From positions 8,455 to 72,454 of the forward strand of contig CAVSGX010000004.1 of assembly GCA_963727715.1 (NCBI GenBank): DNA of 64,000 nucleotides. The letters run 5' to 3'. Positions 38,661 through 59,307 of this stretch are shown piece after piece. Numbering within the stretch: the first letter of the stretch is position 1; every line of letters begins with the position of its first letter. The DNA is from an uncultured bacterium (GTDB taxonomy: Bacteria; Patescibacteriota; Minisyncoccia; Phycocordibacterales; DATDWN01). The translations under genes were made by a program, and so were the position numbers. The notes below the pieces were generated by a model. That model was not told where the DNA came from and did no database searches. It saw only the letters and a list, made by a program, of their open reading frames with translations.

Positions 38661-39650
38661 TCACAAGAACGAGCGGGAGAGGCGACCACCCAGAGGCGGA
38701 TGGGAACTGGACGGAGCATCGGCACGGACACCGAGCCGGGAACCGGCGGGGTTCCAATAGGCGCAGACGACACGAAAGGAAGATGGGGCGGTTTTGTCAG
38801 GGTTTGGCACTTTAGACCCGGGCAAAGCGGTCCAGTAGTATAGACCATCTTTCTCGTTTTTGGTGTCTATGTGCTTGCCTGTTTGTTCAAAGATTTTTCT
38901 TTGCAGGATGAGATAATCGGACAGAGTTAGAGATTGGTTCGGAGGCAAGGAGAGAAAGGTTTCAATCTTTTTGTTCAGAGTTTGTTTAAGCTCTGATTGT
39001 TGCCAGAGTTCTTGACTGTGGACTAGAACGATTCTTCTTTTTTTGTCTTCTATTACTCCTTCAAACCCGCCACCCGAGTTGAAATTGCTTCCGGTGTATG
39101 TTTCGTTGTATCCTTCCGACATTTTAGCGTTTAGGTCTGTCAGGTTTGGCAGAGTTTCCGGAATGAGCAGGATTGTGTCAAAACCGTGTTTTTCTATTTC
39201 TTCTCTGATTTGGTCAATGTTTCTTTCCCAGATGTTTTTCATCGTCTCGGAGAAGTCTTTCGGTCTGTCTATGGAGTGGGTTGTGTAAAAGGAAGTAAAG
39301 TATTCTATTTCTTTTTCAATATCTATGGTTATGGTTTCTTTCTTTTCTTCAGTGGTTGTTTTGCCGGTTTTTTCGTCTTTTGTCTCTTCGATATGTTTGT
39401 ATTCCACTTCTAGAGTTGTTGAGGATTTGCCTTCTATCTTTCTTTTGAGAGAACGGCATTGGGAGAGTGTTTCTTTGATTTTCAGGCTTAGTTCTTTCTG
39501 TTTCTCTGTATCTCCGCTCTCAATGGCTTTTAGGAGTTTATCTTTCATTTCTTCGGCCTGAGAGAGCAGGCCTTCCATTACGGTCAAGTCGGCCAGAGCT
39601 TGTTCTTTGGTTGGTGGAGAGTTTGGGATTTTGGGAGATTCGTGGGACAT
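38661..39650 (-). CDS. DGR target protein 1 (C-type-lectin-fold-like C-terminus carrying VR1)
   Basis: C-terminus 'GFRVVCAYWNPAGSRLGVRADAPSSSHPPLGGRLSRSFL'. About 97% nucleotide identity to the gene at 40671..41660, except in the variable repeat. Confidence 0.8.
   Translation of the reverse strand: MSHESPKIPNSPPTKEQALADLTVMEGLLSQAEEMKDKLLKAIESGDTEKQKELSLKIKETLSQCRSLKRKIEGKSSTTLEVEYKHIEETKDEKTGKTTTEEKKETITIDIEKEIEYFTSFYTTHSIDRPKDFSETMKNIWERNIDQIREEIEKHGFDTILLIPETLPNLTDLNAKMSEGYNETYTGSNFNSGGGFEGVIEDKKRRIVLVHSQELWQQSELKQTLNKKIETFLSLPPNQSLTLSDYLILQRKIFEQTGKHIDTKNEKDGLYYWTALPGSKVPNPDKTAPSSFRVVCAYWNPAGSRLGVRADAPSSSHPPLGGRLSRSFL
38673..38771 (-). repeat. DGR variable repeat VR1
   Basis: It aligns to the template repeat at 43071-43177. 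All but one difference fall at template-repeat adenines (coding sense). Confidence 0.8.
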
Positions 39651-40670: not shown

Positions 40671-41660
40671 TCACAAGAACGAGCGGGAGAGGCGACCACC
40701 CAGAGGCGGATTGGAAATGGACGGATCATTGGCAACGACATTGAGCTGGGAACCGTCGGGGTACCAATGGGCGCAGACGACACGAAAGGAAGATGGGGCG
40801 GTTTTGTCAGGGTTTGGCACTTTAGACCCGGGCAAAGCGGTCCAGTAGTATAGACCATCTTTCTCGTTTTTGGTGTCTATGTGCTTGCCTGTTTGTTCAA
40901 AGATTTTTCTTTGCAGGATGAGATAATCGGACAGAGTTAGAGATTGGTTCGGAGGCAAGGAGAGAAAGGTTTCAATCTTTTTGTTCAGAGTTTGTTTAAG
41001 CTCTGATTGTTGCCAGAGTTCTTGACTGTGGACTAGAACGATTCTTCTTTTTTTGTCTTCTATTACTCCTTCAAACCCGCCACCCGAGTTGAAATTGCTT
41101 CCGGTGTATGTTTCGTTGTATCCTTCCGACATTTTAGCGTTTAGGTCTGTCAGGTTTGGCAGAGTTTCCGGAATGAGCAGGATTGTGTCAAAACCGTGTT
41201 TTTCTATTTCTTCTCTGATTTGGTCAATGTTTCTTTCCCAGATGTTTTTCATCGTCTCGGAGAAGTCTTTCGGTCTGTCTATGGAGTGGGTTGTGTAAAA
41301 GGAAGTAAAGTATTCTATTTCTTTTTCAATATCTATGGTTATGGTTTCTTTCTTTTCTTCAGTGGTTGTTTTGCCGGTTTTTTCGTCTTTTGTCTCTTCG
41401 ATATGTTTGTATTCCACTTCTAGAGTTGTTGAGGATTTGCCTTCTATCTTTCTTTTGAGAGAACGGCATTGGGAGAGTGTTTCTTTGATTTTCAGGCTTA
41501 GTTCTTTCTGTTTCTCTGTATCTCCGCTCTCAATGGCTTTTAGGAGTTTATCTTTCATTTCTTCGGCCTGAGAGAGCAGGCCTTCCATTACGGTCAAGTC
41601 GGCCAGAGCTTGTTCTTTGGTTGGTGGAGAGTTTGGGATTTTGGGAGATTCGTGGGACAT
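40671..41660 (-). CDS. DGR target protein 2 (tandem paralog of target 1, carrying VR2)
   Basis: The 329-aa protein is identical to target 1 until the C-terminal ~30 aa ('VVCAHWYPDGSQLNVVANDPSISNPPLGGRLSRSFL'). Confidence 0.8.
   Translation of the reverse strand: MSHESPKIPNSPPTKEQALADLTVMEGLLSQAEEMKDKLLKAIESGDTEKQKELSLKIKETLSQCRSLKRKIEGKSSTTLEVEYKHIEETKDEKTGKTTTEEKKETITIDIEKEIEYFTSFYTTHSIDRPKDFSETMKNIWERNIDQIREEIEKHGFDTILLIPETLPNLTDLNAKMSEGYNETYTGSNFNSGGGFEGVIEDKKRRIVLVHSQELWQQSELKQTLNKKIETFLSLPPNQSLTLSDYLILQRKIFEQTGKHIDTKNEKDGLYYWTALPGSKVPNPDKTAPSSFRVVCAHWYPDGSQLNVVANDPSISNPPLGGRLSRSFL
40683..40781 (-). repeat. DGR variable repeat VR2
   Basis: All but one difference from the template repeat fall at template-repeat adenines. 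Confidence 0.8.
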
Positions 41661-49971: not shown

Positions 49972-50763
49972 CTAGACCGCGGCCGGCTCCTCAACTTCGG
50001 CGTCGTCGCCCGTCCAGCCGGCTCTCTCCAGGGCCGTTGCCATGATGGCAGTGCCATTGGGACCCGCTGGGTAACTCGCGTCTTCCTGGGCGACCGCCCC
50101 CGGCGAAGTGAATTTGCTGTCCGGGAATGGCTTCTTGTGACCGCCGCCACGTTGGTTGCTGGACGAATTCGGCAGGTGGTATTTGCCCTTGTTGTGAACG
50201 CTGTCCACCAGGCCCCACAGACTGTCGTCCGATTCCATCCGGTCGGCGTAAGCCAACTTGAGGAAACCGGCGATGTTCTTGAATTCATCTTCGCCGGCGC
50301 CGAGACCGAGAAGAGCGGCCAGAAGTCCCTGAACGGCGTAGAAGAAGTCTTCCGTGTCGCCGTGCGCCTTGGTCCATTCCGGCGCCTGCCAGGTCGGTTT
50401 CGCGAAGTCGTCCGAGAGTAGTCGATGGAGATAGATATCTCCGATTTCCTGGCGGTCGGTCAGCCTGATGAACTCCGGAATCGCCCCGACCCACAAACGG
50501 TTCGGGAACTTCGTGACGAATCTCACGGCAGCATCGACGCCCGCCGGGCACTCGATGGCCGCGAAGATCGTCTCAGTGCTCGTCATCACATCGGCCAACC
50601 TGACTGTGCCGGCGACGAGCCGGTCAAGGATAGAAACAGCCTCGACCGAGCGCCTCTCCCGATGTCGGAGGCTAGTAGCCTCCAAGGTCTCCTTGACAGC
50701 TTCATTTGGAGGCGGCATGACAGTGGCAGCCGCCTTAATCCTGCGGAGCAAATTCAATCCCAT
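49972..50763 (-). CDS. Hypothetical protein in a conspicuously high-GC island (likely horizontally acquired)
   Basis: The 263-aa ORF has roughly twice the local GC and an Ala/Arg/Gly/Pro-rich composition unlike its neighbours. Confidence 0.5.
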   Translation of the reverse strand: MGLNLLRRIKAAATVMPPPNEAVKETLEATSLRHRERRSVEAVSILDRLVAGTVRLADVMTSTETIFAAIECPAGVDAAVRFVTKFPNRLWVGAIPEFIRLTDRQEIGDIYLHRLLSDDFAKPTWQAPEWTKAHGDTEDFFYAVQGLLAALLGLGAGEDEFKNIAGFLKLAYADRMESDDSLWGLVDSVHNKGKYHLPNSSSNQRGGGHKKPFPDSKFTSPGAVAQEDASYPAGPNGTAIMATALERAGWTGDDAEVEEPAAV

Positions 50764-50937
50764 AAAAACCTCTTCTCCTCCATTTAGCCTAGGAGGTCGG
50801 CATTTTTCGAGGATCGTGCCTTTGGTTTAAACCTCCAGCATTCCGCAGATAAGTATACACCTTTTAATAATTTTGTCAAGCACATTTTTGGCCATATTTT
50901 AAGCCACTTTTTTAAGCATAAAAAATTACCTATTTAT

Positions 50938-52672: not shown

Positions 52673-53281
52673 TTAGAGCAACTGGCAAATTTTTGGGGTT
52701 CTTTGTTTTTGCGTCATTCGGTACGCATCGACAATAAAACCCAAAGAAATTATTTGTTGAACGAAAAGCCATGGGTAGTTTTCTATATACATCAGCCACC
52801 CACAAGCAACGTGCATAAGAACATACCAGAGATATCCGCCAGACCGCTCTTTGGCAAGCATGTATGTGCCTATAAGAAAACCTGACACAAGCCCAACCTC
52901 CAGCCATTGATTAACAGTTTTGAGCCCACCGAAATCATATAGACTGTAAGTGAACCCAAGTGCAATGCAAATGACAGCAAGGTGATCAAGCCAACGTGGT
53001 GGTTTTTTAGTTATGCCACGAATAGCAATCACTAAACCCAGCACCATTGCTGGAGCTCCACTTGTTTCTACTGAAGCGGCGATCCAGTTTCGCTCCTTCA
53101 CAAAAATAATCACCCATGGAGGTAAACCAATAAGATACACTGCCCATGAGGCGATTTTCCAATTCCGCTTTTTCCCTATATCACCCCGATTGTGGGCATG
53201 TTCCGAAAATGAGAAAAAAATCTTATTGAGAAGATAAAATATCCCCCCAAGGTACTGTAACAGCAAAACACCCCTAGCCAC
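52673..53281 (-). CDS. Multi-TM membrane protein, PnuC-like nicotinamide riboside transporter family (tentative)
   Basis: Seven or eight TM segments with Trp-rich loops. Confidence 0.35.
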
Positions 53282-54296
53282 CTTTGAAGTAGGACAGTTA
53301 GAATTAATGCATTAGTCGAAAATTAATTTTAATTGTCATATGAAAAACAAATATCATCATTTGTCTTTTGAAGAGAGGTTTTGTATTGAAAAGATGTATT
53401 GCGCCGGTTCGGCCATTCGCAAAATTGCCGAATTTCTCGGTCGGAGTGTCAACACTGTGAGCAGAGAAATACAAAAACACAGTGTTAATGGGGTGTATGA
53501 AGCGGAAAAAGCCAAGCAGAAAGTTTCAATGAAAAGATGGCGAGCCAAACAGCAGTGTCTGAAAGTGGCGCTTGACCCGTTTCTCTGTCGATTCGTGGTG
53601 GAACGATTAACCAAGCCGTATCATTGGTCGCCGAAGCAGATTAGCGGGTATCTTGAATGTGAAATGGGTATCATCTGCTCGGCCAAAGCCATATACAAAT
53701 TTGCCGAGTCGAGAGGTCTAAACCACCTGCTTTTTTGGGGTTGGAACAATCACAAGGGTGGGAGAAAACGAAATCATTGGAAGCACATTCAGGATGGCAG
53801 GAAGTATATTGATGTCAGACCGGAGAGAAAAGGTCTAGGACACATTGAGCTCGATTTCATCGTTTCCAAAGACAGTTCGTGGGTACTTTTGGTTGCTGTG
53901 GATTGGCAAGCCAAAAGAACATGGGTCAGGAAACTGCCCAACAGAAAACGCGACACTATTCGTGCCGCGCTTTCCCGTCTGTTCCATGGTGTTGAATTGA
54001 AGAGCATCACCACAGACAACGATATTGCATTCACCTGTTGGAAAGAGTTGGAAACTCTCCTGCAAGTGCCAATCTATTTTACACATCCATACCATTCTTG
54101 GGAAAAAGGTCTGGTGGAAAACACCAACAGATGGATCAGATGTTTTGTGCCTAAACGAAGAGATATTGAGTCAGTCACTGAGGAAGAATTGCAAGAAATA
54201 CATTCCTTCCTAAACAACCGACCGAGAGAAGTGATTGGCTTCCGCGCGCCAATGAGTTATTATTCAAACATTAGTTCTGTCCTACTTGAGGGGTAA
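53281..54296 (+). mobile_element. IS30-family insertion sequence
   Basis: Terminal inverted repeats of ~17 bp ('AAGTAGGACAG', at 53287-53297 and inverted at 54277-54287) flank a single transposase ORF. Confidence 0.7.
53340..54296 (+). CDS. IS30-family DDE transposase
   Basis: N-terminal HTH 'IRKIAEFLGRSVNTVSREI' and 'HSWEKGLVENTNRWIRCFVPKRRDI'. Confidence 0.85.
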   Translation: MKNKYHHLSFEERFCIEKMYCAGSAIRKIAEFLGRSVNTVSREIQKHSVNGVYEAEKAKQKVSMKRWRAKQQCLKVALDPFLCRFVVERLTKPYHWSPKQISGYLECEMGIICSAKAIYKFAESRGLNHLLFWGWNNHKGGRKRNHWKHIQDGRKYIDVRPERKGLGHIELDFIVSKDSSWVLLVAVDWQAKRTWVRKLPNRKRDTIRAALSRLFHGVELKSITTDNDIAFTCWKELETLLQVPIYFTHPYHSWEKGLVENTNRWIRCFVPKRRDIESVTEEELQEIHSFLNNRPREVIGFRAPMSYYSNISSVLLEG

Positions 54297-54353
54297 TTGG
54301 AGGACACACCTCCATTAAATAAAATATCACAATAAAATAATAAAGTCAAATTG

Positions 54354-54427
54354 TGCGCGTGCCAGGACTCGAACCTGGGACCTCGTCATTATCAGTGACG
54401 TGCTCTAGCCACCTGAGCTACACGCGC
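54354..54427 (-). tRNA. tRNA-Ile (anticodon GAT), no encoded CCA
   Basis: Minus-strand 'GCGCGTGTAGCTCAGGTGGCTAGAGCACGTCACTGATAATGACGAGGTCCCAGGTTCGAGTCCTGGCACGCGCA' forms a cloverleaf with anticodon loop CUGAUAA. Confidence 0.9.
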
Positions 54428-54496
54428 GTATTTCAGAAAAATATAACAAAAAAAACGTTTTTAAGCAAACAAAAAAGGTCAGAGGGGACAAGCCCT

Positions 54497-54721
54497 CTAA
54501 CCCCGAGAATAAGGATGATTTTCCTTTTTCAAAATCTTGTATTCTAAAAAACCATAACCAAAAAGCAAAATGAGACAAACAATGAAAAAGATAAGCGACC
54601 GAAGTGGCTCCTTGGGATCGATGGGTTCCAATTTGTTTGGGAATCCTATACAAACCACAACACAAATCGCCACCGCTAGTAAAATCGGTATTCTGATTTT
54701 TTTTAGTGTACTAAGACTCAT
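54497..54721 (-). CDS. Small 2-TM membrane protein encoded in the 16S-tRNA-Ile spacer (74 aa from ATG at 54721)
   Basis: 'GGAGGT' lies 7 nt upstream of the ATG. Upstream are -35 'TTGACT' and an extended -10 'TGATATAGT'. It is on the same strand as the rRNA. Confidence 0.4.
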   Translation of the reverse strand: MSLSTLKKIRIPILLAVAICVVVCIGFPNKLEPIDPKEPLRSLIFFIVCLILLFGYGFLEYKILKKENHPYSRG

Positions 54722-55170
54722 AGGTGAACCTCCACATAGAACTATATCATACTTTGTCCACAAAAGTCAAGTATAAATTTTTATACGAAAAAACCACTTT
54801 GTTTAGCGGTTTTTTCGAGCTATAAGCCGACGCTTCGGTCGGCTCCCCGACCGCAACGTCGGGGTTGTCCTTTATTTTGTTCCGTTCACCCGAGTCTTTC
54901 CTCGGTGTCAAACTGTTTTAGGACGCACAGTCATCGTCCATTGTCTGCTCAATTGAGGCAGGCAATATCGACTCAATCGTTCGACACATTCTAGGAACGC
55001 GCCGGACTTCTCGATCAGAGACCGAGAGTTTTTCAAATTGAATTATTCCACGACCAGCTTCCGCTAGCCGTGCCTTGTTACGACTTAGTCTTTGTCATTG
55101 AGCTTACCTTGGTGCCGCAAAAACGACGCTTCGGGTATTCCCAACTCCCCTGACTTGACGGGCGGATTTC

Positions 55171-55864
55171 GATAACTTTCGTTTCAGGTTCCCTGAAGTT
55201 TTTAACTTCACCATATCGCTTCCCGTTATTCACGACTTTGGACGTAGCGAGCGGATTTCCCGCACTACGCGAGTTCGATAGTTTCTAGAACTAACGATTT
55301 TGTCCTTCATTTTGTTTTTCAACAAAACTACTACGACGCAGCTGACTTCCAGCACTAATTTTTGGAGTCAAGATTTTCACTTGACAAACACATTTTTTTC
55401 TTATTATTTCATAGGAGGTACTTCGTATGCACATATTTGAGGTTTTTGTATGTGTTGTTTTGGCAATCATGTTTCTTCCTTTGCCAATTTTCTTTTTGCG
55501 TTTTATTGCTTGTATAATAACTGATGCTGATTAAATCTAATCAGTTATTAGTCGACTTGAGTGATTTTGTCAAATCACTCTTTTCTTTTTCCAAAAATTA
55601 GTGCTGGATCTCCCAGGGTCATTTATATTTCTGTTCCAAACATCCGAATCGAGATTTTCGATAAGATTTATCGTGTGCTTCCTTCTGACTCACCGCAGAA
55701 GTCGCACATCTCTTTTTTTTGATTCGGCTGCTCTTTGCTACTAGGATCCTTCAGTCCAGTCATTGCTGATTGTGGACCTACCCGTTCGCTATTTTCACAC
55801 TCCTGTGAAAAGTTGGATTTGAACCAACTAGATATATAAACTGCCTGGCGCATTTTATTCTGAG
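55171..55864 (-). other. ~0.7-kb insertion (putative intron) in 16S after 'CTTGTAC' (E. coli ~1395), no homing endonuclease ORF
   Basis: The exon breaks after CTTGTAC and resumes at '...ATCCGCCCGTCAAGTCAGGGGAG'. Confidence 0.6.
55351..55605 (+). mobile_element. IR-flanked mini-element copy A (terminal IR 'AGCACTAATTTTTGGA') carrying an SD-led 35-aa hydrophobic ORF (55427..55534) and a terminator, antisense to the 16S
   Basis: Terminal inverted repeats at 55351-55372 and 55585-55605. 'ATAGGAGGTACTTCGT-ATG'. ORF 'MHIFEVFVCVVLAIMFLPLPIFFLRFIACIITDAD'. Hairpin plus 'TTTTCTTTTT'. Confidence 0.55.
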
Positions 55865-57480: not shown

Positions 57481-57712
57481 AGCACTAATTTTTGGAGTCA
57501 AGCTTTGACTTGACAAGATTCATTTTATGATTTAACATCAATTCCAGGAGATTAACTCGATGGAATTTATTATGATATTGATCTGTTTAGGAGTTTTTTG
57601 TTTGATCACAGATATGATGATAACTGTTGCTATTGATATCTGTGAATGGATCGATCATTACCTGCACCGGCTTTTATAGCGGTGCAGTTTTCTTTTTCCA
57701 AAAATTAGTGCT
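57481..57712 (+). mobile_element. IR-flanked mini-element copy B carrying an SD-led 39-aa hydrophobic ORF (57560..57679) and a terminator, antisense to the 16S
   Basis: Same termini as copy A (57481-57502 and 57692-57712). 'CCAGGAGATTAACTCG-ATG'. ORF 'MEFIMILICLGVFCLITDMMITVAIDICEWIDHYLHRLL'. The stop codon sits in a terminator hairpin followed by 'TTTTCTTTTT'. Confidence 0.55.
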
Positions 57713-58971: not shown

Positions 58972-59307
58972 TCAATTTTGCAAAAAAGAAACCTGGGAGG
59001 ATGACCCAGGTTTTGTTTGCCTTTTCCCTTGTTCTTTCAGCAAAGGCTTAATCTTTTTAGGAACTTCTTTTATTTTATTTTTTGCTTTTCTTACATCTTT
59101 TATATCTCCTTTATTCTGCAAACAACCAGAATAAAAATAAAAGAGATTGTCTTCAATGAGCAACGTCTGAGAAATTATTCCATCAAAATTTCCTTTGGCC
59201 ATGGCCTTTTCAAGATCAGCGATCGACTGTTTCAAATTGTGATTGCTTTGACAAAAACAAAAAATAGAAAAGGCAAAAAACAGAACAATGAGTTTTGTTA
59301 GCTTCAT
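58972..59307 (-). CDS. Small secreted/lipoprotein-like hypothetical protein
   Basis: N-terminal signal-like 'MKLTKLIVLFFAFSIFCFC' and a Lys-rich C-terminus. Confidence 0.4.
   Translation of the reverse strand: MKLTKLIVLFFAFSIFCFCQSNHNLKQSIADLEKAMAKGNFDGIISQTLLIEDNLFYFYSGCLQNKGDIKDVRKAKNKIKEVPKKIKPLLKEQGKRQTKPGSSSQVSFLQN

Follow-up and report, generated by a model that had tools for sequence, protein, structure and literature searches.

What is a small membrane-protein gene, equipped with its own expression signals, doing between a 16S ribosomal RNA (rRNA) gene and the tRNA-Ile gene of a bacterium? The question is raised by a 64-kb stretch of contig CAVSGX010000004.1 from an uncultured member of the Patescibacteriota, analysed here as a whole and referred to as the window. 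The open reading frame (ORF) concerned, ORF74, encodes 74 amino acids (aa) and lies, like the 16S and tRNA-Ile units around it, on the minus strand; all coordinates follow the numbering of the window. An earlier note on this DNA had described it as a protein-coding gene lodged in the spacer of an rRNA operon. The analysis leads to another answer: ORF74 is probably a real monocistronic accessory gene, an exchangeable cassette for a small envelope protein that occupies a conserved slot.

Anatomy of ORF74

The -35 box, the extended -10 box, the GGAGGT motif, the ATG and the 74-aa ORF with two transmembrane (TM) segments were all found on the minus strand where the earlier note had placed them (Table 1). 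The -10 hexamer reads TATAGT (54746-54741) and is preceded by TG. The promoter, which scored 10/12 against the consensus in a promoter scan, is similar to that of the 16S gene at 58959-58932 on the same strand. The scan returned four promoter-like sites around ORF74, where 1.6 were expected. The Shine-Dalgarno (SD)-like core GGAGG (54733-54729) stands 7 nucleotides (nt) before the ATG (54721-54719); GGAGGT, for which the earlier note gave 7 nt, stands 6 nt before it, a trivial difference in counting. No structure is predicted for the initiation region from its folding energy (-4.8 kcal/mol, z = 0.57). At the other end, the TAG stop codon lies inside the 5' arm of the gene's own terminator. Combinations of a strong SD, a start codon and an ORF of at least 25 aa occur 13 times in the window, both strands included, and ORF74 is the sole small one with two hydrophobic helices. 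Owing to this rarity, and to the recurrence of the same design in relatives, the combination of signals is considered to be beyond chance.

Two stretches of the protein are hydrophobic, reaching Kyte-Doolittle maxima of 2.7 and 2.3 over 19 residues. An AlphaFold2 model places helices at residues 3-26 and 39-67 with a mean predicted local distance difference test (pLDDT) score of 71. The net charge is +3 at the N-terminus, 0 in the loop and +2 at the C-terminus. The predicted tryptic peptides include LEPIDPK, ENHPYSR and IPILLAVAICVVVCIGFPNK. Of the six frames, that of ORF74 has the best codon score, which exceeds that of 99.3% of out-of-frame windows taken from real genes.

A predicted transcription unit between two others

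The 16S gene runs from 58592 down to about 55036 and is broken by two insertions. As its helix 45 and tail end at ~55036 and tRNA-Ile starts at 54427, the spacer measures about 610 nt, in agreement with the ~600 nt first estimated. The notion of a gene inside an rRNA operon spacer was not borne out: a search for the 23S (large-subunit) rRNA in the 64-kb window returned none, and terminators and promoters are predicted on both sides of ORF74. In a syntenic relative (L002; SecD 91% and SecF 83% identical), a 23S-5S pair is found ~9 kb upstream of the 16S gene, in the order 23S-5S, ~9 kb, SecD-SecF, a small gene, 16S, a small ORF, tRNA-Ile and pyruvate kinase.

The boundaries of the neighbouring units are recognizable. 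A block of the 16S trailer, GAACGGAACAAAATAAAGGA (54887-54868), is exactly complementary to TCCTTTATTTTGTTCCGTTC (58636-58617) in the leader, just 5' of the 16S gene, and the pairing of the two is the predicted processing stem of the pre-16S. The intrinsic terminator of the 16S gene, the hairpin of which is conserved in relatives, directly precedes the ORF74 promoter. On the other side, the tRNA-Ile promoter is called because a block coinciding with it, TTTGTTTGCYTAAAA-N-TTTTTTGWTATWT, is conserved in relatives in the form TTTGTTTGCYTAAAA...TTTTTTGWTAT. Since a stem and terminator of the 16S unit lie upstream, ORF74 has a promoter and terminator of its own, tRNA-Ile has a separate promoter, and the 23S gene is unlinked, ORF74 is by its predicted signals an autonomous unit between two other units, rather than one carried along in the transcript of an rRNA operon. 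For the Patescibacteria, or candidate phyla radiation (CPR), unlinked rRNA genes have been described before (Brewer et al., bioRxiv 10.1101/705046).

A recurrent slot in related Parcubacteria

By its SecF homologues the window belongs to the Parcubacteria (Paceibacteria/Minisyncoccia), close to Zambryskibacteria and Taylorbacteria. Related loci, 183 in all and designated by L-numbers, were gathered; at least 120 loci came from a metagenome scan with the helix 45 and tail sequence, and 59 named genomes from a search of GTDB for the processing-stem motif. Many loci have a common order: TTGACTTTT...(TG)TAnnnT, ~7 nt, GGAGG, 5-10 nt, ATG, an ORF of 60-115 aa, and then a terminator rich in G+C, followed by the tRNA promoter block and tRNA-Ile. 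The positional class defined on this basis begins with the 16S trailer and terminator, and calls for a promoter of the form TTGACx-17/18-(TG)TAnnnT and a product with 1-2 TM helices and a basic C-tail; all its elements are present in the window and in 18 further non-redundant loci.

For an unbiased count, sites were chosen by the promoter, SD and start codon alone, which yielded 21 non-redundant sites. An ORF of 67-115 codons opened at 19 of them; each of the 19 products carries one TM segment or more, 16 of them two. At the two remaining sites the ORFs span only 6-7 codons, and at least one of these is ended by the limit of the available sequence. As 19 of 21 frames are open, against roughly 1-4% for random frames of like composition (our estimate), the ORFs of the slot are taken to be coding genes. 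In the named GTDB genomes (Taylorbacteria, Zambryskibacteria, Paceibacterota), an SD-led TM ORF precedes tRNA-Ile in 23 of 48 loci. The same design at the same position in relatives upholds the original proposal that ORF74, with its own promoter, canonically spaced SD-like motif and two-TM product, is very probably a genuine protein-coding gene.

Pooling 30 slot proteins gave mean net charges of +1.4 (N-terminus), -0.8 (loop) and +3.6 (C-terminus), and densities of Lys plus Arg of 0.25, 0.08 and 0.23, respectively. This pattern indicates that slot proteins would be hairpins with both termini in the cytoplasm (N-in/C-in), a short acidic outer loop rich in Pro and Gly, and a basic cytoplasmic tail, a description that fits ORF74.

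Sequence similarity between slot proteins is confined to small groups. The detectable sub-families are L002-L019-L077, L125-L135-L157-L067, L150-L153, L151-L174 and L023-L104; by sequence comparison ORF74 belongs to none of them. Within the first, the proteins are distant homologues (E = 1e-13 and 2e-4). A profile of the 19 slot proteins retrieved little beyond the members it was built from; the additions were two orphans, one of them in an Adlerbacteria genome. A word-indexed search of 5.8 billion proteins with ORF74 returned ORF74 alone, and an exhaustive HMMER search of 1.84 billion representatives returned ORF74 and one other protein (P0122). The latter was rejected as spurious, as it is a tandem-repeat protein of 2159 aa that owes its score to 23 weak repeat matches added together. 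No match was obtained by tblastn against 125 related loci or by phmmer against 12,653 six-frame ORFs from related loci, and no relative was found in IMG/VR or among GenBank phages. Pfam, PHROGs and NCBIfam gave sub-threshold TM matches only (DUF5325, CrgA), with no family recurring among the 19 slot proteins, and the best Foldseek match in the PDB (E = 1.8) was among generic helical hairpins. According to the earlier note, a frame that was not conserved among relatives and was broken there by substitutions and indels would speak against the gene. The first part was found, since the ORF is not conserved at the sequence level; the second was not, as relatives have other, intact ORFs with this architecture in place of the frame. 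ORF74 is an orphan small membrane-protein gene within a hypervariable islet.

The occupancy of the slot varies. One relative (L005; SecF 84% identical) has the promoter, an AGGAG and the terminator without an ORF, for a predicted transcript of about 100 nt. Short spacers free of any cassette are found in L049, L052, L078, L137 and L142, and tandem double cassettes in L019, L010, L008 and L104. The slot of L149 holds a secreted cell-wall hydrolase (Hydrolase_2, E = 3e-12), and those of L130, L148, L172 and L183 hold lysozyme-like proteins with sub-threshold Destabilase/SLT matches. These hydrolases either replace the small two-TM protein or sit downstream of another small ORF.

A Shine-Dalgarno motif without its partner

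The GGAGG motif had been taken for a classical SD, which does not agree with the rest of the translation apparatus. The tail of the window 16S reads GGAAUAAUUCAAUU in place of GGAUCACCUCCUUA and is devoid of CCUCC, and other genes do not use SDs. No GGATCACCTCCTT-like site with up to three mismatches is present on the same strand near the 16S end. The 16S exons contain no CCTCC; as the window covers 64 kb, a second 16S copy elsewhere in the genome is possible. A CCUCC partner sought in the trailer, the cassette terminators and the rest of the 16S gave nothing consistent, the sole CCUCC on the rRNA strand being the antisense of the SD of a mini-element within an intron. In the 59 named genomes, every readable 16S tail lacks the anti-SD. 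Tail variants such as GAUUAUUUCAAUUUGA are found in Taylorbacteria, Zambryskibacteria and Paceibacterota loci. About half of the Parcubacteria have been reported to be without anti-SD (Tsurumaki et al. 2022, RNA 28:1041, PMC9297842).

The genes themselves conform to this loss. Almost none of the about 55 long ORFs of the window has an SD-like motif. GGAG or GAGG stands upstream of 8% of 457 genes from related loci, the same proportion as in a control region, and an SD motif was found in 51 of 755 genes of a second set. The word most enriched upstream of the 457 genes is TATAAT, 5-9 nt before the ATG, which suggests that many of these genes may be expressed as leaderless mRNAs. Against this background, a GGAGG-type motif 5-10 nt from the start is present in ORF74 and in nearly all its listed relatives, the exception being L077 with ~12 nt. 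Within its own genome, the "SD" of ORF74 is therefore anomalous.

Two general explanations of the motif were discarded. GGAGG is not a general mark of leadered mRNAs, an SD being found in just 1 of the 25 long genes whose promoter could be recognized and whose leader is short. Neither is there a new SD matching the actual 16S tail, as words complementary to the tail are not enriched (104 vs 86 for 6-mers; 19 vs 22-30 for 7-mers). It is conceivable, though doubtful, that the GGAGG at the 5' terminus is kept because it is still read by something other than the 16S tail, and that the slot is a landing pad for exchange with G+C-richer, SD-using organisms. Candidate readers would be another ribosomal or RNA-binding component, a GGA-binding regulator, or non-self ribosomes, for example those of an SD-using host or donor. 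On this reading, Parcubacteria that are without anti-SD and otherwise initiate translation in a leaderless or SD-free way would keep the motif in one class of small envelope-protein genes.

Origin and proposed exchange of the cassettes

When the window is aligned with its closest relatives, homology extends through the promoter and SD, is lost, and returns at the T-run of the terminator. At this level of divergence SecD keeps 91% identity and pyruvate kinase 68%, and several other small accessory proteins have no detectable counterpart. The G+C content at third codon positions (GC3) of the cassettes exceeds that of the long genes of their hosts by 25 points on average (n = 29), with 72% vs 29% in L125, 72% vs 25% in L074 and 74% vs 25% in L156. 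In L125, the G+C-rich block extends exactly from the SD to the terminator. Slot cassettes with a GC3 of 70-83% were seen in genomes with a long-gene GC3 of 25-45% (e.g. L125, L008, L074, L136, L156).

This composition suggests a foreign origin for most of the relatives' cassettes, which that of ORF74 does not. From the pattern of flanks and cores, it is inferred that cassettes are gained, lost and replaced by recombination between conserved flanks, and that the original donors were G+C-richer and SD-using.

Interpretation and alternatives

The following scheme can be proposed for ORF74. A near-consensus promoter of the sigma-70 type would start transcription at or next to GGAGG, leaving a leader of ~12 nt before the ATG, and expression would be driven by this strong, rRNA-like promoter. 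Translation would start on the short unstructured leader without classical SD-anti-SD pairing, and transcription would end at the strong intrinsic terminator. The 74-aa product would form a helical hairpin with its basic N-terminus and basic C-terminal tail in the cytoplasm and a short loop rich in Pro, Asp and Glu outside. The slot would lie between two fixed points, the terminator of the 16S gene (unlinked and intron-bearing) and the separate tRNA-Ile promoter, in a clade of Parcubacteria without 16S anti-SD. Its contents would be interchangeable: mostly two-TM proteins of 67-115 aa unrelated in sequence, in some genomes secreted peptidoglycan hydrolases, and in others no gene at all. Cassettes would be gained, lost and swapped through recombination between the highly conserved flanks, namely the 16S gene with its trailer and, beyond the cassette, tRNA-Ile. 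The protein may work at the envelope; it could, for example, take part in interactions with a host or a phage, or assist wall hydrolases in the manner of a holin. This role is proposed because of the wall hydrolases in the slot, the holin-like architecture, the hypervariability and the foreign composition.

Several observations weigh against this scheme. The codon score of ORF74, 0.08, is below that of every 75-codon window of core genes (minimum 0.094); core genes score 0.31 +/- 0.08, and the IS30, LAGLIDADG and other accessory genes 0.16-0.17. Its composition is not foreign, with a GC3 of 35% vs 41% for the host. No sequence homologue exists in any protein, locus or viral collection searched, so that coding selection on ORF74 cannot be tested by the substitution pattern. 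The GGAGG has no partner in the window 16S, and efficient translation is therefore not assured. The exchange of cassettes is deduced solely from conserved flanks around a variable core, and the envelope function is a guess from the topology and from what the slot holds in other genomes.

An unlikely alternative, although the most serious one, is that ORF74 is a horizontally acquired passenger with little or no translation and no selected function, its GGAGG being the relic of an SD-using donor. The compositionally alien cassettes of most relatives (L125, L074, L156) are what this would predict, and it is in line with the background frequency of SD motifs elsewhere, with the atypical codon usage of ORF74 and with the mobile DNA near the slot (an IS30 element, homing-endonuclease introns and terminal inverted repeat (TIR) mini-elements). 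Yet ORF74 and the cassettes of its nearest relatives (L002, L077, L068) have a host-like G+C content and still carry GGAGG at canonical spacing. Moreover, the L002, L019 and L077 proteins have diverged greatly and all keep the motif, an intact ORF and the TM topology, a point in favour of selection in the host; the motif also persists in sub-families that are down to ~30% identity. Without selection, a relic of 5 nt would be expected to decay fast, whereas motif and ORF are intact at 19 of the 21 sites.

It is rather improbable that the product is a membrane-damaging peptide, either a pore former like class II holins acting with wall hydrolases or the toxin of a type I-like addiction module serving the mobile DNA around the rRNA gene. 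The size, the two TM segments, the predicted N-in/C-in topology and the charged C-terminal tail would suit a class II holin. Peptidoglycan hydrolases do occur in the same slot of other genomes; none is encoded beside ORF74, and none of the loci inspected combined a hydrolase with a small TM gene. The TIR mini-elements inside the 16S introns hold two further small hydrophobic ORFs led by an SD, which is compatible with a toxin. However, ORF74 has a single Met start rather than a dual-start motif, no relatives among phages, PHROGs or viral contigs, and no promoter-like site on the opposite strand within it. With 74 aa and two TM segments it is larger than typical type I toxins, and a near-consensus, apparently constitutive promoter would be odd for a lethal protein.

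That the frame of ORF74 is open by chance, the real product being a non-coding RNA or a transcribed leader of tRNA-Ile, is very improbable. The absence of homologues, the low codon score, the ease with which hydrophobic ORFs arise in T-rich DNA, and the ORF-less ~100-nt transcript predicted in L005 would all be accommodated. What chance does not provide is ORFs of at least 67 codons at 19 of 21 independent sites, far from the 1-4% estimated for random sequence, a consistent positive-inside charge pattern over 30 proteins, and canonical spacing from SD to ATG. Besides, a strong terminator separates ORF74 from tRNA-Ile, which has its own conserved promoter, and no Rfam family is above threshold in the region. 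Finally, co-transcription of ORF74 within a 16S-tRNA-Ile-23S operon spacer, to which the adjacency of 16S and tRNA-Ile in the ancestral operon order might point, can practically be dismissed in view of the strong terminators before and after ORF74, the separate promoters, and a 16S gene unlinked from the 23S, as known for Patescibacteria (bioRxiv 10.1101/705046).

Neighbouring elements

The features of the region are compiled in Table 1. The second 16S insertion contains no endonuclease ORF in the window, where it houses a TIR mini-element instead; its equivalent in L005 (4256-5100) carries a LAGLIDADG_1 ORF. The REP-like (repetitive extragenic palindromic) hairpin of the trailer has a second copy in the 16S leader (58872-58832) and is also found in L016; it is missing from the trailer of the closest relatives.

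Table 1. Features of the ORF74 region, its flanks and neighbouring elements (window coordinates)
Feature	Position	Strand	Remarks
Promoter of ORF74	54741..54770	-	-35 TTGACT 54770-54765, 18-nt spacer, extended -10 TGATATAGT 54749-54741
SD-like GGAGGT	54728..54733	-	7 nt 3' of the -10 box; at or near the predicted mRNA 5' end
ORF74	54497..54721	-	74 aa, MSLSTLKKIRIPILL...; predicted N-in/C-in helical-hairpin membrane protein
Intrinsic terminator of ORF74	54471..54504	-	12-bp G+C-rich stem, then U6; -19.0 kcal/mol, z = -4.3
Putative tRNA-Ile promoter	54440..54468	-	TTGCTT, 17 nt, TGtTATATT; below the -35 threshold of the promoter scan
tRNA-Ile (GAT)	54353..54427	-	
16S intrinsic terminator	54786..54817	-	A6-CCGCU...AGUGG-U6; -16.6 kcal/mol, z = -5.6
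REP-like double hairpin	54826..54864	-	CCCCGAC..GTCGGGGAGCCGAC..GTCGGC; window-specific insertion in the trailer
Conserved 16S 3' trailer	54868..55035	-	70-92% identity across many loci
16S 3' terminal exon	55036..55165	-	CCGCCCGUCAAG...; intact helix 45, GGAA loop, then tail GGAAUAAUUCAAUU 55050-55036
Second 16S insertion, ~690 nt	55166-55860	-	After E. coli position about 1390; weak group II D1-D4-like match
Group I intron with LAGLIDADG ORF	about 57761-56669	-	First 16S insertion
TIR mini-elements, 255 and 232 bp	55351-55605; 57481-57712	+	In the two 16S insertions, antisense to 16S
TIR mini-element ORFs	55427-55534; 57560-57679	+	
Small signal-peptide protein gene	58972-59307	-	Between SecF and the 16S promoter
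IS30-type transposase gene	53340..54296	+	Just downstream of tRNA-Ile; HTH_38 and rve domains
202-aa membrane-protein gene	52673-53281	-	With the IS30 gene, between tRNA-Ile and pyruvate kinase

The two TIR mini-elements are bounded by perfect 16-bp repeats, AGCACTAATTTTTGGA ... TCCAAAAATTAGTGCT, with four repeat matches against 0.21 expected; they also occur in L106 (3442-3760). Each contains a TTGACA promoter-like site, an AGGAG(G) 8-9 nt before an ATG, a single-TM ORF of 35 or 39 aa, and a hairpin. Transcripts of the rRNA strand run antisense to the SDs of these elements, an arrangement reminiscent of type I toxins. The theme that the earlier note saw as shared between these intron elements and ORF74 holds insofar as all are SD-led small hydrophobic ORFs; it goes no further, the elements being on the opposite strand and having no sequence or repeats in common with ORF74. 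No TIRs like theirs were found around ORF74.

ORF74 shares its layout (promoter, ~7 nt, GGAG(G), ATG) with the small gene that separates SecF from the 16S promoter; this gene is likewise not conserved in sequence among relatives (L002 10960-11418; L005 1752-2369). Consequently, SD-led small envelope-protein genes are found on both flanks of the 16S gene. On the other side of the locus, pyruvate kinase follows tRNA-Ile almost directly in L068 and L077 and after about 60-180 bp in L002. An inverted repeat, GGAGGACACACCTCC, lies at 54301-54315, by the 3' end of the transposase gene.

Farther away, a patch of 58-62% G+C at about 50000-50800, in a genome with 40% G+C, is probably foreign DNA. It holds a 263-aa ORF at 49972-50763 (minus strand), without Pfam match and with GGAGG...GAGG upstream, which is the sole other long ORF of the window with a strong SD. 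Two ORFs of 330 aa on the minus strand (38661-39650 and 40671-41660), ~2 kb apart, have identical internal stretches and look like a recent tandem duplication.

Significance and relation to known systems

Taken alone, ORF74 is one more orphan small membrane protein, and the interest resides in the surrounding pattern. CPR 16S introns, unlinked rRNA genes and the loss of the anti-SD in part of the Parcubacteria are already known. In the literature searched, neither the conserved 16S-tRNA-Ile cassette slot nor a class of genes retaining the SD in bacteria without anti-SD was found. The unusual aspect is the recurrence of an exchangeable, SD-bearing design in a lineage otherwise without SD-anti-SD initiation. 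As the cassettes are essentially the sole genes with a textbook SD in these bacteria, they raise the question of whether GGAGG is read there, and by what. Recombination between divergent lineages could use the universally conserved flanks, 16S and tRNA, as handles, and the slot cassettes are candidate factors for the host-dependent lifestyle of these Parcubacteria.

With its 16S gene apart from the 23S-5S pair and interrupted by a LAGLIDADG group I intron and a second insertion, the window resembles the intron-bearing CPR loci with unlinked rRNA genes (bioRxiv 10.1101/705046). The gene slot between 16S terminator and tRNA-Ile and the SD-led small membrane cassettes do not figure in that work. 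The tail devoid of CCUCC(U) and the SD motifs at background frequency correspond to what was reported for Parcubacteria without anti-SD (PMC9297842). That report covers the loss, and includes neither a class of genes keeping a canonical GGAGG nor the leaderless signature of TATAAT before the ATG.

In Flavobacteriia and other Bacteroidota, rpsU is a special gene that retains an SD in an SD-poor lineage. The likeness is that a strong SD is confined to a small set of genes, SDs being otherwise unused in the genome. Bacteroidota ribosomes, however, keep a (sequestered) anti-SD, of which the window 16S gene has none, so that the Bacteroidota regulatory logic is not directly applicable.

As regards the protein, the Pfam family DUF5325 comprises small two-TM proteins of Firmicutes; the match of ORF74 to it is weak and confined to one TM helix (E = 0.0014, 18.9 bits). 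The match spans 21 residues and is below the gathering score of 25 bits, and none of the 18 other slot proteins matches the family. Class II holins, such as S of phage 21, are small proteins with two TM segments, N-in/C-in topology and a charged C-terminal tail. ORF74 is predicted to share these properties and falls in the same size class (60-100 aa). It differs by the absence of an adjacent endolysin, of a dual start, of a phage context and of sequence or profile similarity, its neighbours being 16S, tRNA-Ile and IS30. Type I toxins, which are shorter than 60 aa with a single TM segment and an antisense RNA gene, differ from ORF74 in length and in TM number, and no promoter-like site was found opposite ORF74.

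The arrangement can be compared with integron cassettes and tRNA-adjacent genomic islets, in which exchangeable small genes, mostly ORFans, often encoding membrane or secreted proteins and often foreign, occupy a fixed position. No integrase was seen among the window ORFs near the slot, and no attC-type sites were noticed, attC models not having been searched. Like these systems, the 16S-tRNA-Ile slot is a fixed site for exchangeable small ORFan genes, some of them in tandem. Unlike integron cassettes, each slot cassette carries its own promoter and intrinsic terminator, the hairpins followed by U-runs having the appearance of terminators.

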